Origin: Candidatus Saganbacteria bacterium | GTDB lineage: Bacteria > Margulisbacteria > WOR-1 > JAKLHX01 | Assembly (NCBI GenBank): GCA_026387835.1 | Contig: JAPLKZ010000004.1 | Coordinates: forward strand, 73,931-105,930 | Length of the DNA: 32,000 nt | Direction of reading: 5' to 3' | In this document: piece after piece, positions 4,176 through 30,764 of the stretch | Layout of the letters: the number at the start of each line of letters is the position of its first letter | Numbering within the stretch: the first letter of the stretch is position 1 | Translations under genes and position numbers: made by a program | The notes under the pieces: model-generated | What the model saw: the letters and a program-made list of their open reading frames with translations, nothing else | Database searches by the model: none | What the model was told of the DNA's origin: nothing

Positions 4176-5402
4176 TTATCGGCTGACCTTCATAGCGCAG
4201 TAGTCGCCGCACATCGTGCACACGTCTTTTCTTTTTGAGGAAAGCCTTTTGTGGTAGGAACGCGCTTTTTCGCTGTCAAGCGCGAGTGAAAGCTGTTTCT
4301 GCCAGTCAAGGGCTTTTCTTGCCTTTGACATCTCGTAGTCCCTTTTTAACGCGCTTTTTATGCCTTTGGATATGTCGCCGATATGGGCGGCGATCCTTGA
4401 GACTATTATCCCTTCTCTCACATCGTCCGCAGTCGGGAGCCCCAGATGTTCTGCAGGAGTGACATAGCAAAGAAAATCGGCCCCGGCCGAAGCAGCAAGA
4501 GCGCCTCCTATAGCGCACGCCACGTGGTCATACCCAGCCGCGATATCTGTCGGAAGCGGACCAAGGACATAGAAAGGAGCGCCGGCGCAGATCTTTTTTT
4601 CCAGCTTCATCTGGTCGATGATTTGGTTTATAGGGACATGACCCGGACCTTCGATAATAACTTGGACTCCCGCCTTTCTTGCTCTTTCCGCCAGTTTCCC
4701 TAATATTTTCAGCTCCTCTATCTGCCCGGCGTCGCCCGCATCAAAGATCGAACCCGGCCTGAGCCCGTCGCCGAGGCTTATCACGACACCGTATCTCCTG
4801 CAGATATCAAGGACCCTGTCATACTGTTCAAAGAGAGGATTTTCTTTTTTGTGCTTTTCCATCCACGCGTAAAGGAGCGCGCCTCCCCTGCTCACTATCC
4901 CCATCAGTCTTTTTTTCTTTTTTATCTCCGCAACGGACCTTTTTGTGACCCCGCTGTGGATAGTCATAAAGTCGACCCCGTCAGCCGCTTGTCTTTCGAT
5001 GACGTCTAGCATTGTCTCCGCAGTGAGTTTTTCGATCCCGCCGGCTTCTATTACAGCTTGATATACGGGGACCGTTCCCAGAGGGACCGGACAATTTTCA
5101 AGTATTTTCTTCCTGATCCTGTCGATATTTCCTCCTGTGCTCAGGTCCATCACCGCGTCCGCTTTGTATTTTATGCAGACTTCGAGCTTCTTTAGTTCGC
5201 TGGCGAGAGAAGGGTAATCCTGTGAAGTGCCGATGTTCGCGTTAACTTTTGTAAGAAGACCTTTTCCCACACCGGCCGGTTTGCAGTTTTTGTGGAGCGG
5301 GCTTTTCAATATGACGATCGTCCCGTTCTTCAATCCCTGCTCGATCTGTTTTACGGGCAAGTTCTCGTCTTGAGAGATCTTTTTAATGTAGGATTTATTC
5401 AC
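4176..5402 (-). CDS. thiC: phosphomethylpyrimidine synthase ThiC (short anaerobe-type form)
   Basis: 408 aa. C-terminal radical-SAM cluster motif CTMCGDYCAMK, plus conserved IEGPGHVP, YVLGPLPTDIA and DHV blocks. The GTG start overlaps the upstream TAG by 1 nt. Confidence 0.9.
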   Translation of the reverse strand: MNKSYIKKISQDENLPVKQIEQGLKNGTIVILKSPLHKNCKPAGVGKGLLTKVNANIGTSQDYPSLASELKKLEVCIKYKADAVMDLSTGGNIDRIRKKILENCPVPLGTVPVYQAVIEAGGIEKLTAETMLDVIERQAADGVDFMTIHSGVTKRSVAEIKKKKRLMGIVSRGGALLYAWMEKHKKENPLFEQYDRVLDICRRYGVVISLGDGLRPGSIFDAGDAGQIEELKILGKLAERARKAGVQVIIEGPGHVPINQIIDQMKLEKKICAGAPFYVLGPLPTDIAAGYDHVACAIGGALAASAGADFLCYVTPAEHLGLPTADDVREGIIVSRIAAHIGDISKGIKSALKRDYEMSKARKALDWQKQLSLALDSEKARSYHKRLSSKRKDVCTMCGDYCAMKVSR

Positions 5403-5956
5403 TAATATGTGATGTGTTCTTTTTTAAGAAGCTTTTTCCAGAATTTCTTTCCTAATATTTTTTCCTTCTCCCGGACTTTTTTCGCCGCTTTTACCGCGAG
5501 TTCGACGGCCTGCTCTGGGGTCTTGACGTATTTTATCGGTATCCTTTTGTGCCCTTTCCGCATAAAATGCCAGGTGTTTATCCCGAACGTCGGTATCTTG
5601 TAGCTAAGCGCGTAAGCCATCTCGCAAAGTGTGCCGTAGCTTCCTCCGATCGCGATCACCGCCTGTCCGCTTTTTACGACAAGCTTGTTCCGGCCGTAAC
5701 CTATCCCGGTAACGACGGGGATATCAATATATTTGTTCGCCTCGTATCTTTTTCCACTGGGGAGTATTCCGACCGTTGTCGCGCCCGGATGTTTCTTTGC
5801 TCCTTTGCAGATCGCCTCCATGACCCCTATCCTTCCCCCGCAGAATATCACAGCTTTGTGTTTTGCGAGAAGTTCACCCACTCTTTCCGCTATCTTATAA
5901 TTCTCTTTTGAAGCAACGCTCTCGCCTATCACTGTTATAAAAAGTCTTTCTTCCAT
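5402..5956 (-). CDS. TIGR00725 / LOG-like (SLOG Rossmann) family protein
   Basis: 184 aa. GGRIGVMEA and GGSYGTLCE match the LOG-family GGxGxM...PGGxGTxxE pattern. SD AGGGAG lies upstream. Confidence 0.75.
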   Translation of the reverse strand: MEERLFITVIGESVASKENYKIAERVGELLAKHKAVIFCGGRIGVMEAICKGAKKHPGATTVGILPSGKRYEANKYIDIPVVTGIGYGRNKLVVKSGQAVIAIGGSYGTLCEMAYALSYKIPTFGINTWHFMRKGHKRIPIKYVKTPEQAVELAVKAAKKVREKEKILGKKFWKKLLKKEHITY

Positions 5957-8645: not shown

Positions 8646-9344
8646 TCAGGCCCTTAGCCTTTTTATTTCCTCTTCGGTCAAATGTCTCCATTTGCCGGTC
8701 ATGAGGTCCCCCAGTTCCAGCTCTTTTATCCTTATTCTTTTAAGTCTTACCACTTTCTTTCCTATCGCCTGGCACATCCTTCTTATCTGCCTTTTTTTGC
8801 CTTCTTTGATTATTATCCTGAAAGAATTTTTGCCGGTCTGTTTGAGTTTACAGGGTTTTGTCCTCCCCTCTTCAATGACCACGCCCCTTTCGAGCGACTT
8901 CAGCTCTTCAGCCTTTATCTCTTCAGCGTTTACTTTAACTTCGTATTCCTTCTCGCATTCGTATCTAGGATGCGTAAGGCGGTTCGCGAGCTCTCCGTCG
9001 TTCGTCAGGAGTATCAGGCCCTCGGAATCTTTATCCAAACGGCCCACGGGAAATACTTTCTCATTTATCTTGACAAGGTCAACAAGTGCCGCGCCCTGGG
9101 ACCTGGAACATGAAGATATATAACCCTGGGGTTTGTTAAGTGCAATATATATATTTTTCTGGCCAGGTTTTATAAGACGGCCTTTTACGGTGATCTCGTC
9201 TTTATCAGGATCGATGCTCTGCCCGATCATGGCAAGACGTTTGTTCGCGCACACCAGCCCGTCTTCGATCATCTTTTCGGACGCCCTGCGCGAAGCAACC
9301 CCGCACTGGGAAAGATATTTCTGGATGCGTATATTTTCTTTCAT
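8646..9344 (-). CDS. rRNA pseudouridine synthase, RsuA/RluB family
   Basis: 232 aa. N-terminal S4 domain (IQKYLSQCGVASRRASEKMIEDG) and catalytic GRLDKDSEGL motif. The start overlaps the DUF1667 stop by 4 nt. Confidence 0.9.
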   Translation of the reverse strand: MKENIRIQKYLSQCGVASRRASEKMIEDGLVCANKRLAMIGQSIDPDKDEITVKGRLIKPGQKNIYIALNKPQGYISSCSRSQGAALVDLVKINEKVFPVGRLDKDSEGLILLTNDGELANRLTHPRYECEKEYEVKVNAEEIKAEELKSLERGVVIEEGRTKPCKLKQTGKNSFRIIIKEGKKRQIRRMCQAIGKKVVRLKRIRIKELELGDLMTGKWRHLTEEEIKRLRA

Positions 9345-9703
9345 TCAATATCCCTTGTGAGGATGAGATCAAATCCGGTCCCAATAAAGTTTTTTTCAAT
9401 AACATCACCCGTTTTCCCCTGTGTTTTTATCCTGATATGTTTTATCCTTTCCATCGCATCGAACATCTTCTCTTTTGGTATCGGCTTGTTTGTCCTTACC
9501 GGCACCATCCTAAGTTCAAGGCCTTCCGCCAGTATCGTCGATGTCAGTATCCTCGCCGGACATTCTATTTCATTCTTCGCGTATGTCTCGCCTTTTTTGC
9601 ATTCATTGCCTTTTATGAACATGAACTTTCCCGACTCGGCCTCTATCTCGAGCCTGCAACTTTTGGGACATTCGATGCATGTTATCCGCTTGTTCTCTAC
9701 CAT
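9341..9703 (-). CDS. DUF1667 domain protein (small subunit of anaerobic-type glycerol-3-phosphate dehydrogenase clusters)
   Basis: 120 aa. N-terminal Cys cluster CIECPKSCRLE and the usual size and position downstream of two flavoprotein genes. Confidence 0.75.
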   Translation of the reverse strand: MVENKRITCIECPKSCRLEIEAESGKFMFIKGNECKKGETYAKNEIECPARILTSTILAEGLELRMVPVRTNKPIPKEKMFDAMERIKHIRIKTQGKTGDVIEKNFIGTGFDLILTRDIE

Positions 9704-9720
9704 ATTATCCTCAATTCAAT

Positions 9721-9805
9721 TAATGACTAATTACTAATGACTAATGTCTAATTAATGTAAAATATTATGATCTAATAATTATTCCTTAATTAGTCATTAG
9801 TAATT
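9721..9805 (+). repeat. AT-rich palindromic element, copy A (short variant, about 85 bp)
   Basis: The first 36 nt, AATGACTAATTACTAATGACTAATGTCTAATTAATG, are identical to copy B. The right arm is CCTTAATTAGTCATTAGTAATT. It fills the gap between two cistrons and contains the stop codon of gene 9786..10832. Confidence 0.85.
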
Positions 9806-10832
9806 TCCCTGATGCTCCAATATATTCTGCCGCCGTCCTCCCGGCTAAAATACTGTCTTTCGTCACAGAATCCGCTATATCATAGACTTTATACGAATTC
9901 CCGCAGCAAAATATTCCCGGGATAGATGTTTGATTTATCTGTCCGGAAACTGGGGAATTCGTGTTTTTATCTATCTGTGCACCGGCCATTTCCAGAAGTT
10001 CGTTCTCCGGTATTAGGCCTACCGACATCAGGACTGTGTCGCATCCGATATGGAATATCGAATCCGGAATATCTTTGAGGCTTTCATCGACATTAACCAC
10101 ATCAACACCTTCTACTCTGTCTTTTCCATAGATCCTCGAAACCCTGTGCCTGTAATAGATCGGGATATCAAAATCTTCTATACATTGGGAAATGTTCCTT
10201 TTAAGCCCCCTGCTCTCTTTAAGTATTTCGATGACAGCTTTTACTTTTGCTCCTTCAAGCGTGAACCTCCTCGCCATTATGAGACCGATATCCCCGGAAC
10301 CGATGATTACAACTTCCCTCCCAGGCAAAAGCCCTTCAATATTAATAAGCTTTTGGGCAAGTCCTGCCGAGAAAACACCTGACGGTCTCGTGCCGGGAAT
10401 ATGCGTCATCTCCCTTGTCTTCTCCCTGCATCCGGTCGCCATGATCACCGCTTTTGCTTTCACTTGCTCTAACCTTCCCGGCTTTATGTAAGTGATCACC
10501 TTTTCGCCCTCACCCTTCCCCTCTCCCAGAGGGAGAGGGTGGTTATCCATAGAATTGATTTCCAACTTCACCACGAACGACTTTAAGCTTATCTCGATCC
10601 CTTTAATATCCCTGACTTTTTTTATGAACCTGTCCGCGTATTCCGGGCCAGTTAAAATATCCTTAAAATATTCGAGTCCGAAACCTGTATGTATGCACTG
10701 GTTCAGTATCCCGCCAAGATACTGGTCTCTTTCAAGCAAAAGGATGTCCTTAATACCGCATTCATACGCAGAAATGGCAGCCGCCATACCAGCTGGGCCT
10801 CCACCGACGATTATTAACTCTCGTTGTTCCAT
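9786..10832 (-). CDS. FAD/NAD(P)-binding pyridine nucleotide-disulfide oxidoreductase (second flavoprotein of the G3P dehydrogenase-like set)
   Basis: 348 aa. N-terminal GGGPAG and a second Rossmann motif GSGDIG. The last codons KLLMTN and the stop lie inside repeat A. Confidence 0.85.
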   Translation of the reverse strand: MEQRELIIVGGGPAGMAAAISAYECGIKDILLLERDQYLGGILNQCIHTGFGLEYFKDILTGPEYADRFIKKVRDIKGIEISLKSFVVKLEINSMDNHPLPLGEGKGEGEKVITYIKPGRLEQVKAKAVIMATGCREKTREMTHIPGTRPSGVFSAGLAQKLINIEGLLPGREVVIIGSGDIGLIMARRFTLEGAKVKAVIEILKESRGLKRNISQCIEDFDIPIYYRHRVSRIYGKDRVEGVDVVNVDESLKDIPDSIFHIGCDTVLMSVGLIPENELLEMAGAQIDKNTNSPVSGQINQTSIPGIFCCGNSYKVYDIADSVTKDSILAGRTAAEYIGASGKLLMTN

Positions 10833-10841
10833 ATTATCTTT

Positions 10842-10942
10842 AAATGACTAATTACTAATGACTAATGTCTAATTAATGAAAATATTATTATTAAATAATT
10901 ACTCCTTCATTAGTCATTAAGAATTAGTCATTAGTAATTCTC
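10842..10942 (+). repeat. AT-rich palindromic element, copy B (101 bp)
   Basis: Differs from the reverse complement of copy C (29994-30094) at a single position (10922 A versus C). It contains the final codons RRITND and the stop of gene 10924..12396. Confidence 0.9.
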
Positions 10943-12396
10943 CTGCCCCCTTTTATCATCTCCGATCCTTTTCCTCTCTTTGTTATTTTGGTTATCGGGA
11001 TAAACATTTCCTCGGCCAAAATCTTCATCGCCCTTGTCGTGCAGAAGCTTCCGTGACATCTGCCCGACTGGCATCTCGTGCGGAACTTTATCCCGTCCAT
11101 CGTCCGCGCCCCGCGTTTCACGGCTTCCCTTATTTCTTTTGCCGACACCATCTCGCATCTGCAGATTATATCGCCGTACGAAGGATCCTTAGAGATAAAA
11201 TCTCTTATCTTTTTAAAAGGCATCTCAAAAATATGGACGGTCCTTTTTCTGTGTTTCTTAAAGAAAAGTTTTCTTCTCATAGACAGTCCGTTCTTTTTTA
11301 ATATGTCTTTGACCATCAGCGCTATCGCAGGAGCTGAAGTCAGCCCGGGTGACTGTATGCCGGCGACATTCACGAAACCCGGGACTTTATCCTCATGGCG
11401 GATTATAAAATCTTCGCCGGCTACAGGCCTGAGTCCCGCAAAATACGCGATTATGTCATTTTCGCTGATGGTCGGGATCATCTTCCGGACGCTTTCTATC
11501 ACCTTTTTCATTCCTTCATCCGTTGTTGAAAGATCTTCTTTTGAATCTACCTCTTCGGCGGTGGGACCTACCATCGGATTTCCATCTGCAGTCTTTATGA
11601 CAAGGATGCCTTTTGAGTTCTTTTGCGGAAGAGGAAAGAGCAAGTGTCTGGTTATATGCTCTTTTTTCTTATCGAGAATGAACTCCTCGCCTTTCCTGGG
11701 TTTGATCGTAAAAGTATCAATATCGACAAGTCTTGAAACATCATCAGCGTAAAGACCCGCACAATTGATCACAAACCGCGACCGGAAGGTTCCGTTTGAG
11801 GTGACGATCTCAAATCTGGGGTCATTGCTGCCGACATAATACGGGGATCTCTTTATGGAAACGACTTTTTCTCCGGTCAAAATCGTCACCCCGTTGGCAG
11901 CAGCGTTCTCCGCTATATCATAAACAAACCTGTACGGGCTTATTATGCCTGCCGTAGGAGCGAAAAGCGCCGCCACGACATCTCCAGTAAGATTTGGTTC
12001 ATTTGCTTTTAACCACGCGCGGTCAACTATCCGAAGTGACGGGACACCAAGCTTTTCCGCTTCGGCCTTGATCTCATTAAGACGTAATATATCTTCCTGT
12101 GAGGATGCAAGAATGAGCTCGCCGACTTCCCTGAAATCGACACCCAGCTCTTTCGCCCACTGCCTGACAAGTCTGTTTCCCTGCACGCAAAGCCTGCCTT
12201 TTAATGAGCCTGCAGGGTTCTGCGTTCCCGGATGGATTATCCCGCTGTTCGATTTTGATACTCCGAAAGCAAGCTCTTCTTCTTTTTCAAGGAGGGCTGT
12301 TGAAAGTCTATAGCGGGATAATTCTCTGGCAATCGCAGTACCTGTTACTCCCCCGCCGATTATCAGGACATCGTATATACCATTCATAGATGTCAT
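10924..12396 (-). CDS. FAD-dependent glycerol-3-phosphate dehydrogenase-like oxidoreductase with C-terminal BFD-like [2Fe-2S] domain
   Basis: DVLIIGGGVTGTAIARE dinucleotide fold. C-terminal CRCEMVSAKEIREAV...CQSGRCHGSFC is BFD-like. The start is uncertain: the track uses TTG 12423, and ATGs occur at 12396 and 12387. None has a clear SD. Confidence 0.85.
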   Translation of the reverse strand: MTSMNGIYDVLIIGGGVTGTAIARELSRYRLSTALLEKEEELAFGVSKSNSGIIHPGTQNPAGSLKGRLCVQGNRLVRQWAKELGVDFREVGELILASSQEDILRLNEIKAEAEKLGVPSLRIVDRAWLKANEPNLTGDVVAALFAPTAGIISPYRFVYDIAENAAANGVTILTGEKVVSIKRSPYYVGSNDPRFEIVTSNGTFRSRFVINCAGLYADDVSRLVDIDTFTIKPRKGEEFILDKKKEHITRHLLFPLPQKNSKGILVIKTADGNPMVGPTAEEVDSKEDLSTTDEGMKKVIESVRKMIPTISENDIIAYFAGLRPVAGEDFIIRHEDKVPGFVNVAGIQSPGLTSAPAIALMVKDILKKNGLSMRRKLFFKKHRKRTVHIFEMPFKKIRDFISKDPSYGDIICRCEMVSAKEIREAVKRGARTMDGIKFRTRCQSGRCHGSFCTTRAMKILAEEMFIPITKITKRGKGSEMIKGGRRITND

Positions 12397-12443
12397 TTTA
12401 ATGATGATGGCGGTATTTATCAACCGGTTGAGATCTAAATCGC

Positions 12444-29917: not shown

Positions 29918-29991
29918 TGGCTGCGGGACTAGGATTCGAACCTAGACAGCCAGCTTCAGAGACTGGCGTCCTACCATTAGACGATCCCGCA
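29918..29991 (-). tRNA. tRNA-Gln (anticodon CUG), CCA encoded
   Basis: Hand-folded. Acceptor TGCGGGA/TCCCGCA with U1-A72 and discriminator G73, as is typical of bacterial tRNA-Gln. D arm GTCT-AATGGTA-GGAC. Anticodon stem CCAGT/GCTGG with loop CTCTGAA. T arm CTAGG-TTCGAAT-CCTAG. Confidence 0.9.
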
Positions 29992-29993
29992 AA

Positions 29994-30094
29994 GAGAATT
30001 ACTAATGACTAATGCTTAATGACTAATGAAGGAGTAATTATTTAATAATAATATTTTCATTAATTAGACATTAGTCATTAGTAATTAGTCATTT
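29994..30094 (-). repeat. AT-rich palindromic element, copy C (101 bp, inverted relative to copy B)
   Basis: Its reverse complement matches 10842-10942 at 100 of 101 positions. It starts 2 nt from the 5' end of tRNA-Gln and ends 20 nt from the stop of the four-helix-bundle gene. Confidence 0.9.
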
Positions 30095-30114: not shown

Positions 30115-30465
30115 TCAGGATTTCGACTTACGTATAATCGCGGCAAGTATCAATATAATCTCGCGGCATTCACTTGTAATGTTTTCAAGTTCTTTTTTGT
30201 TATCAGCATTGTTAATTAATTCGGCTTCTTTCATTATTTTAAGCCAATATTCGGTTTCCTGAGCCTCCTTTTTTGCTATAAAGACTTTATTGATAAAATC
30301 TTTCTTTGAACAGGCTGAATCGGCTTCAGTCATATTCGCTCCGATAGATGCGGCGCTCCTTAAAAGCTGATCATTGATAATGTTTATTGAGGGGTTCTTT
30401 GAAATACGTTTTATAAACTTAACTATTTGTACCGCAAACCGCAACGTCCTATCCTGTATTTCCAT
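30115..30465 (-). CDS. four-helix-bundle protein of the 23S rRNA intervening-sequence (IVS) protein family
   Basis: 116 aa. LRFAVQIVKFIKRI...QLLRSAASIGANMTEADSACSKKDFINKVFIAKKEAQETEYWLKIM matches the family hallmark (…QL.RSa.SI.aNiaEg….s.kdF…l.iA.gSl.E..ywL…). Confidence 0.85.
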   Translation of the reverse strand: MEIQDRTLRFAVQIVKFIKRISKNPSINIINDQLLRSAASIGANMTEADSACSKKDFINKVFIAKKEAQETEYWLKIMKEAELINNADNKKELENITSECREIILILAAIIRKSKS

Positions 30466-30479
30466 TTTACAATGATTTT

Positions 30480-30515
30480 CCTTAATTAGTTATTAGTCAT
30501 TAGAAATTAGTCATT
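30480..30515 (+). repeat. partial palindromic element, copy D (right-arm type)
   Basis: CCTTAATTAGTTATTAGTCATTAGAAATTAGTCATT. It lies between the four-helix-bundle start (14 nt away) and the stop codon of gene 30516..30764, which it directly abuts. Confidence 0.75.
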
Positions 30516-30764
30516 CTACACCGGCGGTTTCCACCATTGCGGCTGTGCGATCAGAATATATGCTCCGTATAACAATATAATAGCCGCAGCTGCTGCAAAA
30601 ACCCAAAAATTAATGTCGCGTTTCCTGCCGTTCTTTACCATGACAGCTGTGGCAATGAATGCTATAAGCGAAAGTATTATCAAAGCGGAACCTTTAAATA
30701 CCGGACTTTCGCTTATATACCTTATTATTTTAGAGCCGGTCTCAAAATCGATGAATTTTAACAT
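30516..30764 (-). CDS. small membrane protein (82 aa, two TM helices)
   Basis: Two hydrophobic helices (ALIILSLIAFIATAVMV and FWVFAAAAAIILLYGAYILIA) separated by a basic loop. No recognisable family. Confidence 0.5.
   Translation of the reverse strand: MLKFIDFETGSKIIRYISESPVFKGSALIILSLIAFIATAVMVKNGRKRDINFWVFAAAAAIILLYGAYILIAQPQWWKPPV

Follow-up and report, generated by a model that had tools for sequence, protein, structure and literature searches.

What are the AT-rich palindromic segments which fill both gaps of a three-gene operon in a Candidatus Saganbacteria genome, and where did they come from? We analysed a 32,000-nt stretch of contig JAPLKZ010000004.1 (assembly GCA_026387835.1, positions 73,931 to 105,930; the whole stretch is referred to below as the window), in which an earlier reading made from the letters alone (the sequence-only reading) had picked out two such segments, copies A and B, and suggested that they might be a mobile insulator or processing element of no recognised family. 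We think it probable that A and B are non-autonomous copies, lacking an open reading frame (ORF), of a heptamer-armed hairpin cassette which resembles the intervening sequences (IVSs) of bacterial 23S rRNA and forms long AU-rich RNA stems. The ORF-bearing form of this element, which encodes a four-helix-bundle (4HB) protein, is present in the same window.

The operon is on the minus strand and consists of a GlpA-like flavin adenine dinucleotide oxidoreductase gene (DAO, with a BFD [2Fe-2S] domain; cistron 1, 10924..12423), a Pyr_redox_2 flavoprotein gene (cistron 2, 9786..10832) and a DUF1667 gene (cistron 3, 9341..9703). Copy B (10842..10942, minus strand) fills the 91-nt gap between cistrons 1 and 2 (10833-10923) and copy A (9721..9805, minus strand) fills the 82-nt gap between cistrons 2 and 3 (9704-9785), at the coordinates and gap lengths originally described. 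It had also been noticed that both upstream genes end inside the element, and this is indeed the case: the last four codons (ITND) and the TAA stop of cistron 1 are located inside copy B, the last codons (KLLMTN) and the TAA stop of cistron 2 inside copy A, and by translation the two proteins end ...GGRRITND* and ...GKLLMTN*, with these final codons and stops derived from the repeat. The start codons downstream of both copies are intact, that of cistron 2 being 10 nt past copy B and that of cistron 3, which is preceded by GAGGA, 17 nt past copy A. One promoter-like site was found upstream of the operon's first gene, and no promoter-like or terminator-like sites were found in A or B.

The two copies share 36 identical nucleotides (9722-9757 = 10843-10878) and their arms are inverted repeats in which 25 nt pair at 92%. 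We found that these arms are inverted arrays of tandem heptamers of the TAATGAC type (AATGACT, AATTACT, AATGTCT and similar), located at approximately 9721-9757 and 9786-9805 in copy A and approximately 10842-10878 and 10907-10942 in copy B. Between the arms of copy A there is an AT-rich interior which carries AAGGAA on the minus strand; copy B carries AAGGAG on the same strand, which is the mRNA strand, as had been stated. Tandem Repeats Finder reported a period of 7 with 2.7-4.7 copies at every arm of the hairpins in the window and no other period-7 arrays in the 32 kb, and a 13-mer motif had 19 matches at ≤ 2 mismatches compared to 0.64 expected by chance. As RNA, the copies fold far better than shuffled sequences (z-scores −4.2 to −8.2), with 30-41 nested pairs around the centre; the AU-rich hairpin originally predicted therefore stands, while its proposed length of about 25 bp was too short. 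The stems are A+U-rich and without the G+C-rich stem and U-tract of intrinsic terminators, in line with the initial description. What the sequence-only reading overlooked was the heptamer periodicity, a third copy (C), a half-copy (D) and the 4HB gene between C and D.

Copy C (29994..30094, plus strand) is a complete hairpin between the 4HB gene and a tRNA-Gln(CUG) gene (29918..29991, minus strand), which is 2 nt downstream of it. It is identical to copy B at 100 of 101 nt (99%), in the opposite orientation, 19 kb away and in unrelated flanks. Half-copy D (30471..30518, minus strand) is a single upstream heptamer arm with the TTAAGGAA ribosome-binding site of the 4HB gene (30115..30465, minus strand), which is thus bracketed by D and C. 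The 116-aa product of this gene matches PF05635, a family named "23S rRNA-intervening sequence protein" (E = 5.8e−20), TIGR02436 (E = 2.5e−25) and the Protein Data Bank entry 2RLD (E = 3.9e−20), a related uncharacterised protein deposited with five chains; a Candidatus Saganbacteria metagenome-assembled genome (MAG) encodes a protein with 100% identity to it, and it had no match in PADLOC or PHROGs. The full cassette therefore reads: arm D, the TTAAGGAA ribosome-binding site, the 116-aa PF05635 ORF and copy C. Copy C is inverted relative to its neighbouring genes, and its tRNA-proximal arm is the cassette's downstream arm, which can pair with D (−23.0 kcal/mol) or with the other arm of C itself (−25.9 kcal/mol).

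The same arrangement was found in related genomes. Three contigs of the Margulisbacteria group (L117, L119 and L121) contain, in order, a heptamer arm, TTAAGGAG or TTAAGGAA, a 4HB ORF and an inverted heptamer arm, and in two of these (L119 and L121) the region is syntenic with the window, with a small ...QWWK.. ORF, the cassette and then a tRNA-like sequence. A Saganbacteria-group contig (L124) has an arm, a binding site, the ORF and a complete hairpin built from AATGTCC/AATTTCC heptamers, and the mirror image of the window's layout occurs in L122 and in Treponema. When the ORF was deleted from the L119 and L117 cassettes, copies A, B and C aligned with them end to end and collinearly, at 75% mean column identity across the arms, the ribosome-binding site and the 3' untranslated segment. 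It follows from this alignment that the AAGGAG in the loop is the cassette's ribosome-binding site.

The comparison with orthologous operons indicates that A and B were inserted. Among operons in which both junctions could be read, the two closest orthologues are L129 (77% identity, the closest) and L131 (Margulisiibacteriota); in both, the three cistrons overlap by 4-14 nt and there is no gap. We also aligned the middle protein with its 40 closest orthologues, most of which end 3-4 residues after AAEY-, and none (0/40) of which has the GKLLMTN tail; the two GlpA-like orthologues compared end ...GKGSE(I/V)..., without ITND. We therefore conclude that the gaps and the tails were derived from the elements and that A and B are insertions, which on this comparison have separated formerly overlapping cistrons. 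In the closest relatives these overlapping cistrons are presumably translationally coupled. The suggestion that the element is mobile is thus borne out by the near-identical copy 19 kb away, the gapless operons and the tail-less orthologues, this last comparison having been one of the checks originally proposed. A related operon (L130, 72% identical) has unrelated, G+C-richer hairpins at both junctions (L130 1-70 and 1063-1186), namely a stem of approximately 30 bp upstream of the Pyr_redox_2 gene and an AGCTTAC/CCGTAAG heptamer hairpin before the DUF1667 gene; either these junctions were colonised more than once, or an old occupant has undergone turnover. A phage vector was considered and rejected, there being only 4 matches among 2.9 million viral contigs.

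A 1141-nt unitig found in 9 samples matches the window exactly from 10868 to 9728, its two ends falling within an arm of B and an arm of A. This shows that the junctions are real and not an assembly artefact, and that the repeat breaks assembly graphs. The window's 4HB gene was found in 13 Logan contigs in all, two of which (L127 and L128) end 50 nt past the gene, inside copy C. Such breaks at the repeat suggest that many near-identical copies are present in the genome.

The cost of insertion to the upstream proteins is only a replacement tail of 4-7 residues. It had been claimed that stops in all six frames close the element within about 15 nt of either end; all six frames are in fact closed, within 3-26 nt of the element ends. 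Any incoming frame is closed within approximately 26 nt because in the heptamers TAA and TGA, together with TAG on the opposite strand, recur at a period which is coprime to 3. We considered stop codons as the general reason for the conservation of heptamers and rejected this, as variants from other lineages (AATTCGC, CCGCTCT and AGGTTGG) contain no stops; the AATTCGC arms of Nostoc, for example, contain no stop codons at all. All-frame stops are therefore a property of the TAATGAC variant and not of the architecture, nor do they explain the period of 7, and plausibly they help the element to be tolerated at gene ends.

We scanned one genome per species for the pattern TAATGACTAAT, 30-60 nt, ATTAGTCATTA. 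Alongside C and D in the window, TAATGAC-type hairpins were found in 112 stretches of species-representative genomes, belonging to Planctomycetota, Verrucomicrobiota, Bacteroidota, Patescibacteria, Margulisbacteria, Saganbacteria, Cyanobacteriota, Proteobacteria and others. All 112 have multi-unit heptamer arms and loops which are otherwise unrelated, and 107 of them have at least 20 nested pairs (median 36). By a crude gene call, 99 hairpins could be classified by context: 53 lie between co-directional genes, 27 between convergent genes and 18 between divergent genes, with 1 in a predicted ORF; most of the scanned hairpins nearly fill their intergenic gap. In three metagenome contigs (L114, L115 and L116), of which approximately 100 nt on each side of the match were viewed, a heptamer hairpin is located between apparent rpsM (S13) and rpsK (S11) genes; its position is conserved in all three, and its arms are only partly complementary (ATTAGxx vs xxCTAAA/CTAGxxx).

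We also examined the flanks of 22 4HB loci, which were taken from fetched loci, protein-homologue lookups and tblastn against plasmids. These came from Saganbacteria and Margulisbacteria, Cyanobacteriota, Bacteroidota, Spirochaetota, Chloroflexota, Bacillota, Patescibacteria and Alphaproteobacteria. Period 7 was the strongest flank periodicity in 21 of the 22, with a mean self-match of 0.77 compared to a window null mean of 0.39 (99th percentile 0.57), and in 7 of the 10 loci tested the inverted complementarity of the flanks exceeded that of every shuffle. The heptamer sequence varies by lineage: AATTCGC x4 / GCGAATT x4 in Nostoc; GTAATTC and GGAATTT in Dolichospermum; CCCAATC and GTAAATC / GATTTAC in Planktothrix; CAGTTAC / TCACTGG x12 in Euhalothece; TTTAGAT / ATCTAAA in Gloeocapsa and Chlorohelix; CCGCTCT in Treponema; and AACTGTx, including TAACTGA, in Chondrinema. 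In an alphaproteobacterial MAG (L092), AGGTTGG x4 flank a 4HB gene, an adjoining hairpin (5368-5470) has arms of GAGTAGAA-like units with a period of approximately 8, and a TAATGAC-type hairpin is found 1.5 kb away, so that several repeat variants coexist in one genome.

At five plasmid loci (L137, L138, L140, L141 and L143) 4HB cassettes are located between adjacent genes of defence or transport operons. The neighbours of such cassettes include hsdS|hsdR, DrmD|MmeI and the adaptor|permease pair of a resistance-nodulation-division system. A cassette is found between a DUF1156 gene and a Swt1-HEPN gene twice, in Gloeocapsa and in Chlorohelix, with the same ATCTAAA variant. The Monoglobus 4HB copy is a pseudogene.

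The closest described system is the ORF-bearing IVS of 23S rRNA known from Leptospira and Coxiella burnetii (S23p type). In Coxiella this IVS contains a PF05635 ORF (S23p) and a 28-bp terminal stem, carries 2-3 GACAGAT heptamers in tandem after the ribosome-binding site and ahead of the start codon, and is cut by RNase III at the first heptamer repeat (PMC4990558). Our elements share with it the PF05635/TIGR02436 ORF, a ribosome-binding site just inside the 5' arm, terminal inverted repeats with a stem of > 20 bp, tandem heptamers in the 5' arm, short ORF-less forms and dependence on host transcription (PMC4990558). They differ in that the copies here are found in a protein operon and a tRNA leader and not in helix 25 or 45 of 23S rRNA (Rfam found no rRNA gene in the window, matching only two tRNAs), in that the arms are longer heptamer arrays, and in that excision by RNase III is here only supposed from the analogy. 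Avd, the accessory protein of diversity-generating retroelements, also belongs to PF05635; unlike at Avd loci, no reverse transcriptase, template repeat or variable repeat is present near the window's 4HB gene.

Intergenic heptamer arrays have likewise been described before. Cyanobacterial short tandemly repeated repetitive (STRR) heptamers are intergenic tandem heptamer repeats. In the hairpins studied here the 7-nt units are also intergenic, run head to tail and overlap ORF ends, with both upstream stop codons of the operon inside the arrays. The TAACTGA repeats of Beggiatoaceae, Cyanobacteria and Bacteroidetes (MacGregor 2015, PMC4679880) are similar to ours in their period of 7, in their closure of the forward frames by TAA and TGA, in overlapping the ends of upstream ORFs by a few codons, in occurring upstream of start codons and inside operons, and in their patchy phylogenetic distribution; the AACTGTx arms of the Chondrinema 4HB cassette even include TAACTGA. 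They differ in that they are described as direct repeats (of the sets in the BOGUAY genome, 169 are direct and one is inverted) and were predicted to be without RNA structure, and the 4HB protein is not mentioned in the searched text of the paper. The statement that the element belongs to no described family can thus be upheld only in part. It is an ORF-less form of a cassette whose ORF family is that of the Leptospira and Coxiella IVSs, and stop-containing intergenic heptamer arrays were already known (TAACTGA, PMC4679880), whereas neither PMC4679880, in its searched text, nor PMC4990558 contains an inverted-array hairpin in protein operons or a link between such arrays and 4HB genes. The repeat string itself was not found in the literature searched, and searches for IVS protein, S23p and TIGR02436 returned nothing on copies outside rRNA. 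By gathering and E-value thresholds, Rfam contains no RNA family matching the hairpins.

Miniature inverted-repeat transposable elements (MITEs), repetitive extragenic palindromic (REP) elements with their REPIN doublets and Correia-type palindromes are likewise short, non-coding, multi-copy and intergenic, with hairpin arms co-transcribed with their neighbours. Correia elements are RNase III targets. Present in the 32 kb as three complete copies and a half copy, the hairpins of the window have the terminal inverted repeats and the copy number of MITEs. They differ in that there is no transposase-encoding parent with the same ends, the parent encoding only the 116-aa 4HB protein, and in that the arms are tandem heptamers and not unique terminal inverted repeats. 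A clear target-site duplication was not found.

If A and B are indeed ORF-less copies of the cassette, the following course of events can be proposed. The operon would still be transcribed as one RNA across the elements, in keeping with the lack of promoter-like and terminator-like sites in A and B, and each element, which by computation has the capacity to form a stem, would fold into an AU-rich stem of 30-40 bp. By analogy with IVS stems, for which such cutting has been demonstrated by experiment, RNase III may cut these stems; the tricistronic mRNA would then fall into pieces that are translated and decay separately, and the cistrons would thereby be uncoupled. In the full cassette, the same cut would free the 4HB mRNA from whichever host transcript contains it, and this would account for finding a 4HB gene without a promoter of its own in a tRNA leader.

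Other explanations of the hairpins were weighed against this. They could have arisen, or been kept, for the benefit of the operon, as mRNA stabilisers, translational insulators or sites for an RNA-binding protein, with mobility being incidental. The different hairpins at the same two junctions of L130, the hairpin between apparent S13 and S11 genes in L114-L116 and the TAACTGA arrays located just upstream of start codons, also inside ribosomal-protein operons (PMC4679880), would all agree with such a role. However, the two closest orthologous operons do without any gap, the same 101 nt recur inverted in an unrelated context, hairpins of this type are found between divergent as well as co-directional genes, and the sequence gives no sign of a benefit, so we regard a host-evolved regulatory origin as unlikely. 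Intrinsic terminators or attenuators within the operon appear very improbable. The hairpins are strong and 27 of 98 intergenic contexts are convergent gene pairs, but A and B have neither a G+C-rich stem nor a U-tract and gave no terminator-like call, divergent genes are the neighbours of 18 hairpins, and the sites of A and B lie between genes which overlap in related genomes. A reading of the elements as promoters was likewise rejected.

It is also conceivable that the hairpins are moved by a REP-associated tyrosine transposase (RAYT) or an IS200/IS605-type single-strand transposase encoded elsewhere, the 4HB gene being a passenger or a frequent neighbour. Like REP doublets (REPINs, PMC3116915), they are short palindromes present between genes in multiple copies, and they far outnumber 4HB genes, approximately two dozen hairpin loci of one Rickettsiales MAG being without a 4HB gene. 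Yet no RAYT or TnpA gene was found within the window; the arms are heptamer arrays and not a 20-40 nt imperfect palindrome with a fixed tetranucleotide, and the gene which they flank belongs to PF05635 and is not a RAYT. The period-7 flanks at 21 of 22 4HB loci are the kind of flanking association that linked RAYTs to REPs, and A, B and C keep the cassette's ribosome-binding site and 3' untranslated segment. We regard this explanation as quite unlikely. Local growth of heptamer arrays by replication slippage at AT-rich gene junctions, without transposition, has in its favour that in many bacteria heptanucleotides outnumber every other class of long simple sequence repeat (Mrazek 2007, as cited in PMC4679880) and that copy number differs in 7-nt steps between Coxiella strains and between Cyanothece strains. 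Slippage cannot, however, yield a 101-nt element with a non-repetitive loop which is 99% identical at two loci, nor can it explain collinearity with the cassettes of other genomes, and as the origin of the elements we give it very little credence; it probably explains the variation in unit number within arms, as a secondary process.

Several points weigh against our interpretation of A and B as copies of the cassette. Co-transcription across the elements, folding in vivo and cleavage by RNase III are all steps which we infer. A strand asymmetry in fold energy, which would be a sign of RNA-level selection, was not found; both strands gave similar energies, and the RNA strand is therefore not singled out. 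Target-site duplications are not clear at the flanks of B and C, the orthologues being too diverged for a base-by-base empty site, and no transposase or other mobilising enzyme was found within the window, which at 32 kb is the scope of our view of the source genome. The loops of the 112 scanned hairpins show no enrichment of ribosome-binding-site-like motifs (19 observed vs 24.7 expected); only within the Saganbacteria/Margulisbacteria family, therefore, are hairpins shown to descend from a cassette with an ORF. Descent could also have run in reverse, with the ORF captured by a pre-existing hairpin. We know of no catalytic activity for the 4HB protein.

With these points taken into account, the interpretation of A and B as ORF-less, IVS-like cassette copies is still the one we favour. 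A wider reading, which we offer only tentatively and consider rather doubtful as it stands, is that PF05635 4HB genes and heptamer hairpins together form pan-bacterial, promoter-less cassettes which ride in host transcripts (rRNA, tRNA leaders, operon junctions and defence operons) and are released by RNase III. The rRNA IVSs would then be only the cassettes that were noticed first, the intergenic heptamers (STRR, TAACTGA) would be arms or relics, and an oligomer of the 4HB protein would recognise its own heptamer variant.

Some further features of the window and its relatives were observed. Upstream of the cassette there is a small 82-aa ORF (...QPQWWKPPV*; 30516..30764, minus strand), the stop codon of which abuts arm D, and a promoter-like site is located upstream of this ORF at 30807-30779. 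In L119 (3123-3380) and L121 (3124-3399) a GIY-YIG gene of 85-91 aa follows the tRNA-like sequence downstream of the cassette, with short repeat arrays of its own on either side (GAGCGAA-type in L121); it may be another small selfish gene using the same kind of site. Inside the Pyr_redox_2 gene, on the minus strand at 10500-10545, there is an in-frame G+C-rich palindrome, CCCTCTCCC-AGA-GGGAGAGGG, which encodes a lineage-specific insert, roughly ...NHPLPLGEGKGEGEK...; most orthologues do not have the insert, and some Margulisbacteria orthologues have a different 24-residue insert at this site. Rfam gave only a chance-level match for it (whalefall-1, E = 0.37). The palindrome may represent another type of small palindromic insertion, one that is tolerated within a coding region.

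An orphan-looking palindrome thus gains a concrete identity, and the term "intervening sequences" is extended from rRNA to ordinary operons and tRNA leaders. Two separate puzzles, the function of a widespread and uncharacterised 4HB ("IVS protein") family and the origin of intergenic heptamer repeats, are joined, and the finding of 4HB genes between period-7 arrays across phyla is a regularity worth systematic testing. In genome annotation, it becomes possible to mark short C-terminal tails confined to one lineage, such as ITND and LLMTN, as repeat-derived. The elements also show how a compact genome tolerates insertions at overlapping gene junctions, every frame being shut by the heptamers after only a few codons. 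Should RNase III cut the hairpins, these would be natural devices which split polycistronic mRNAs into independently controlled pieces.

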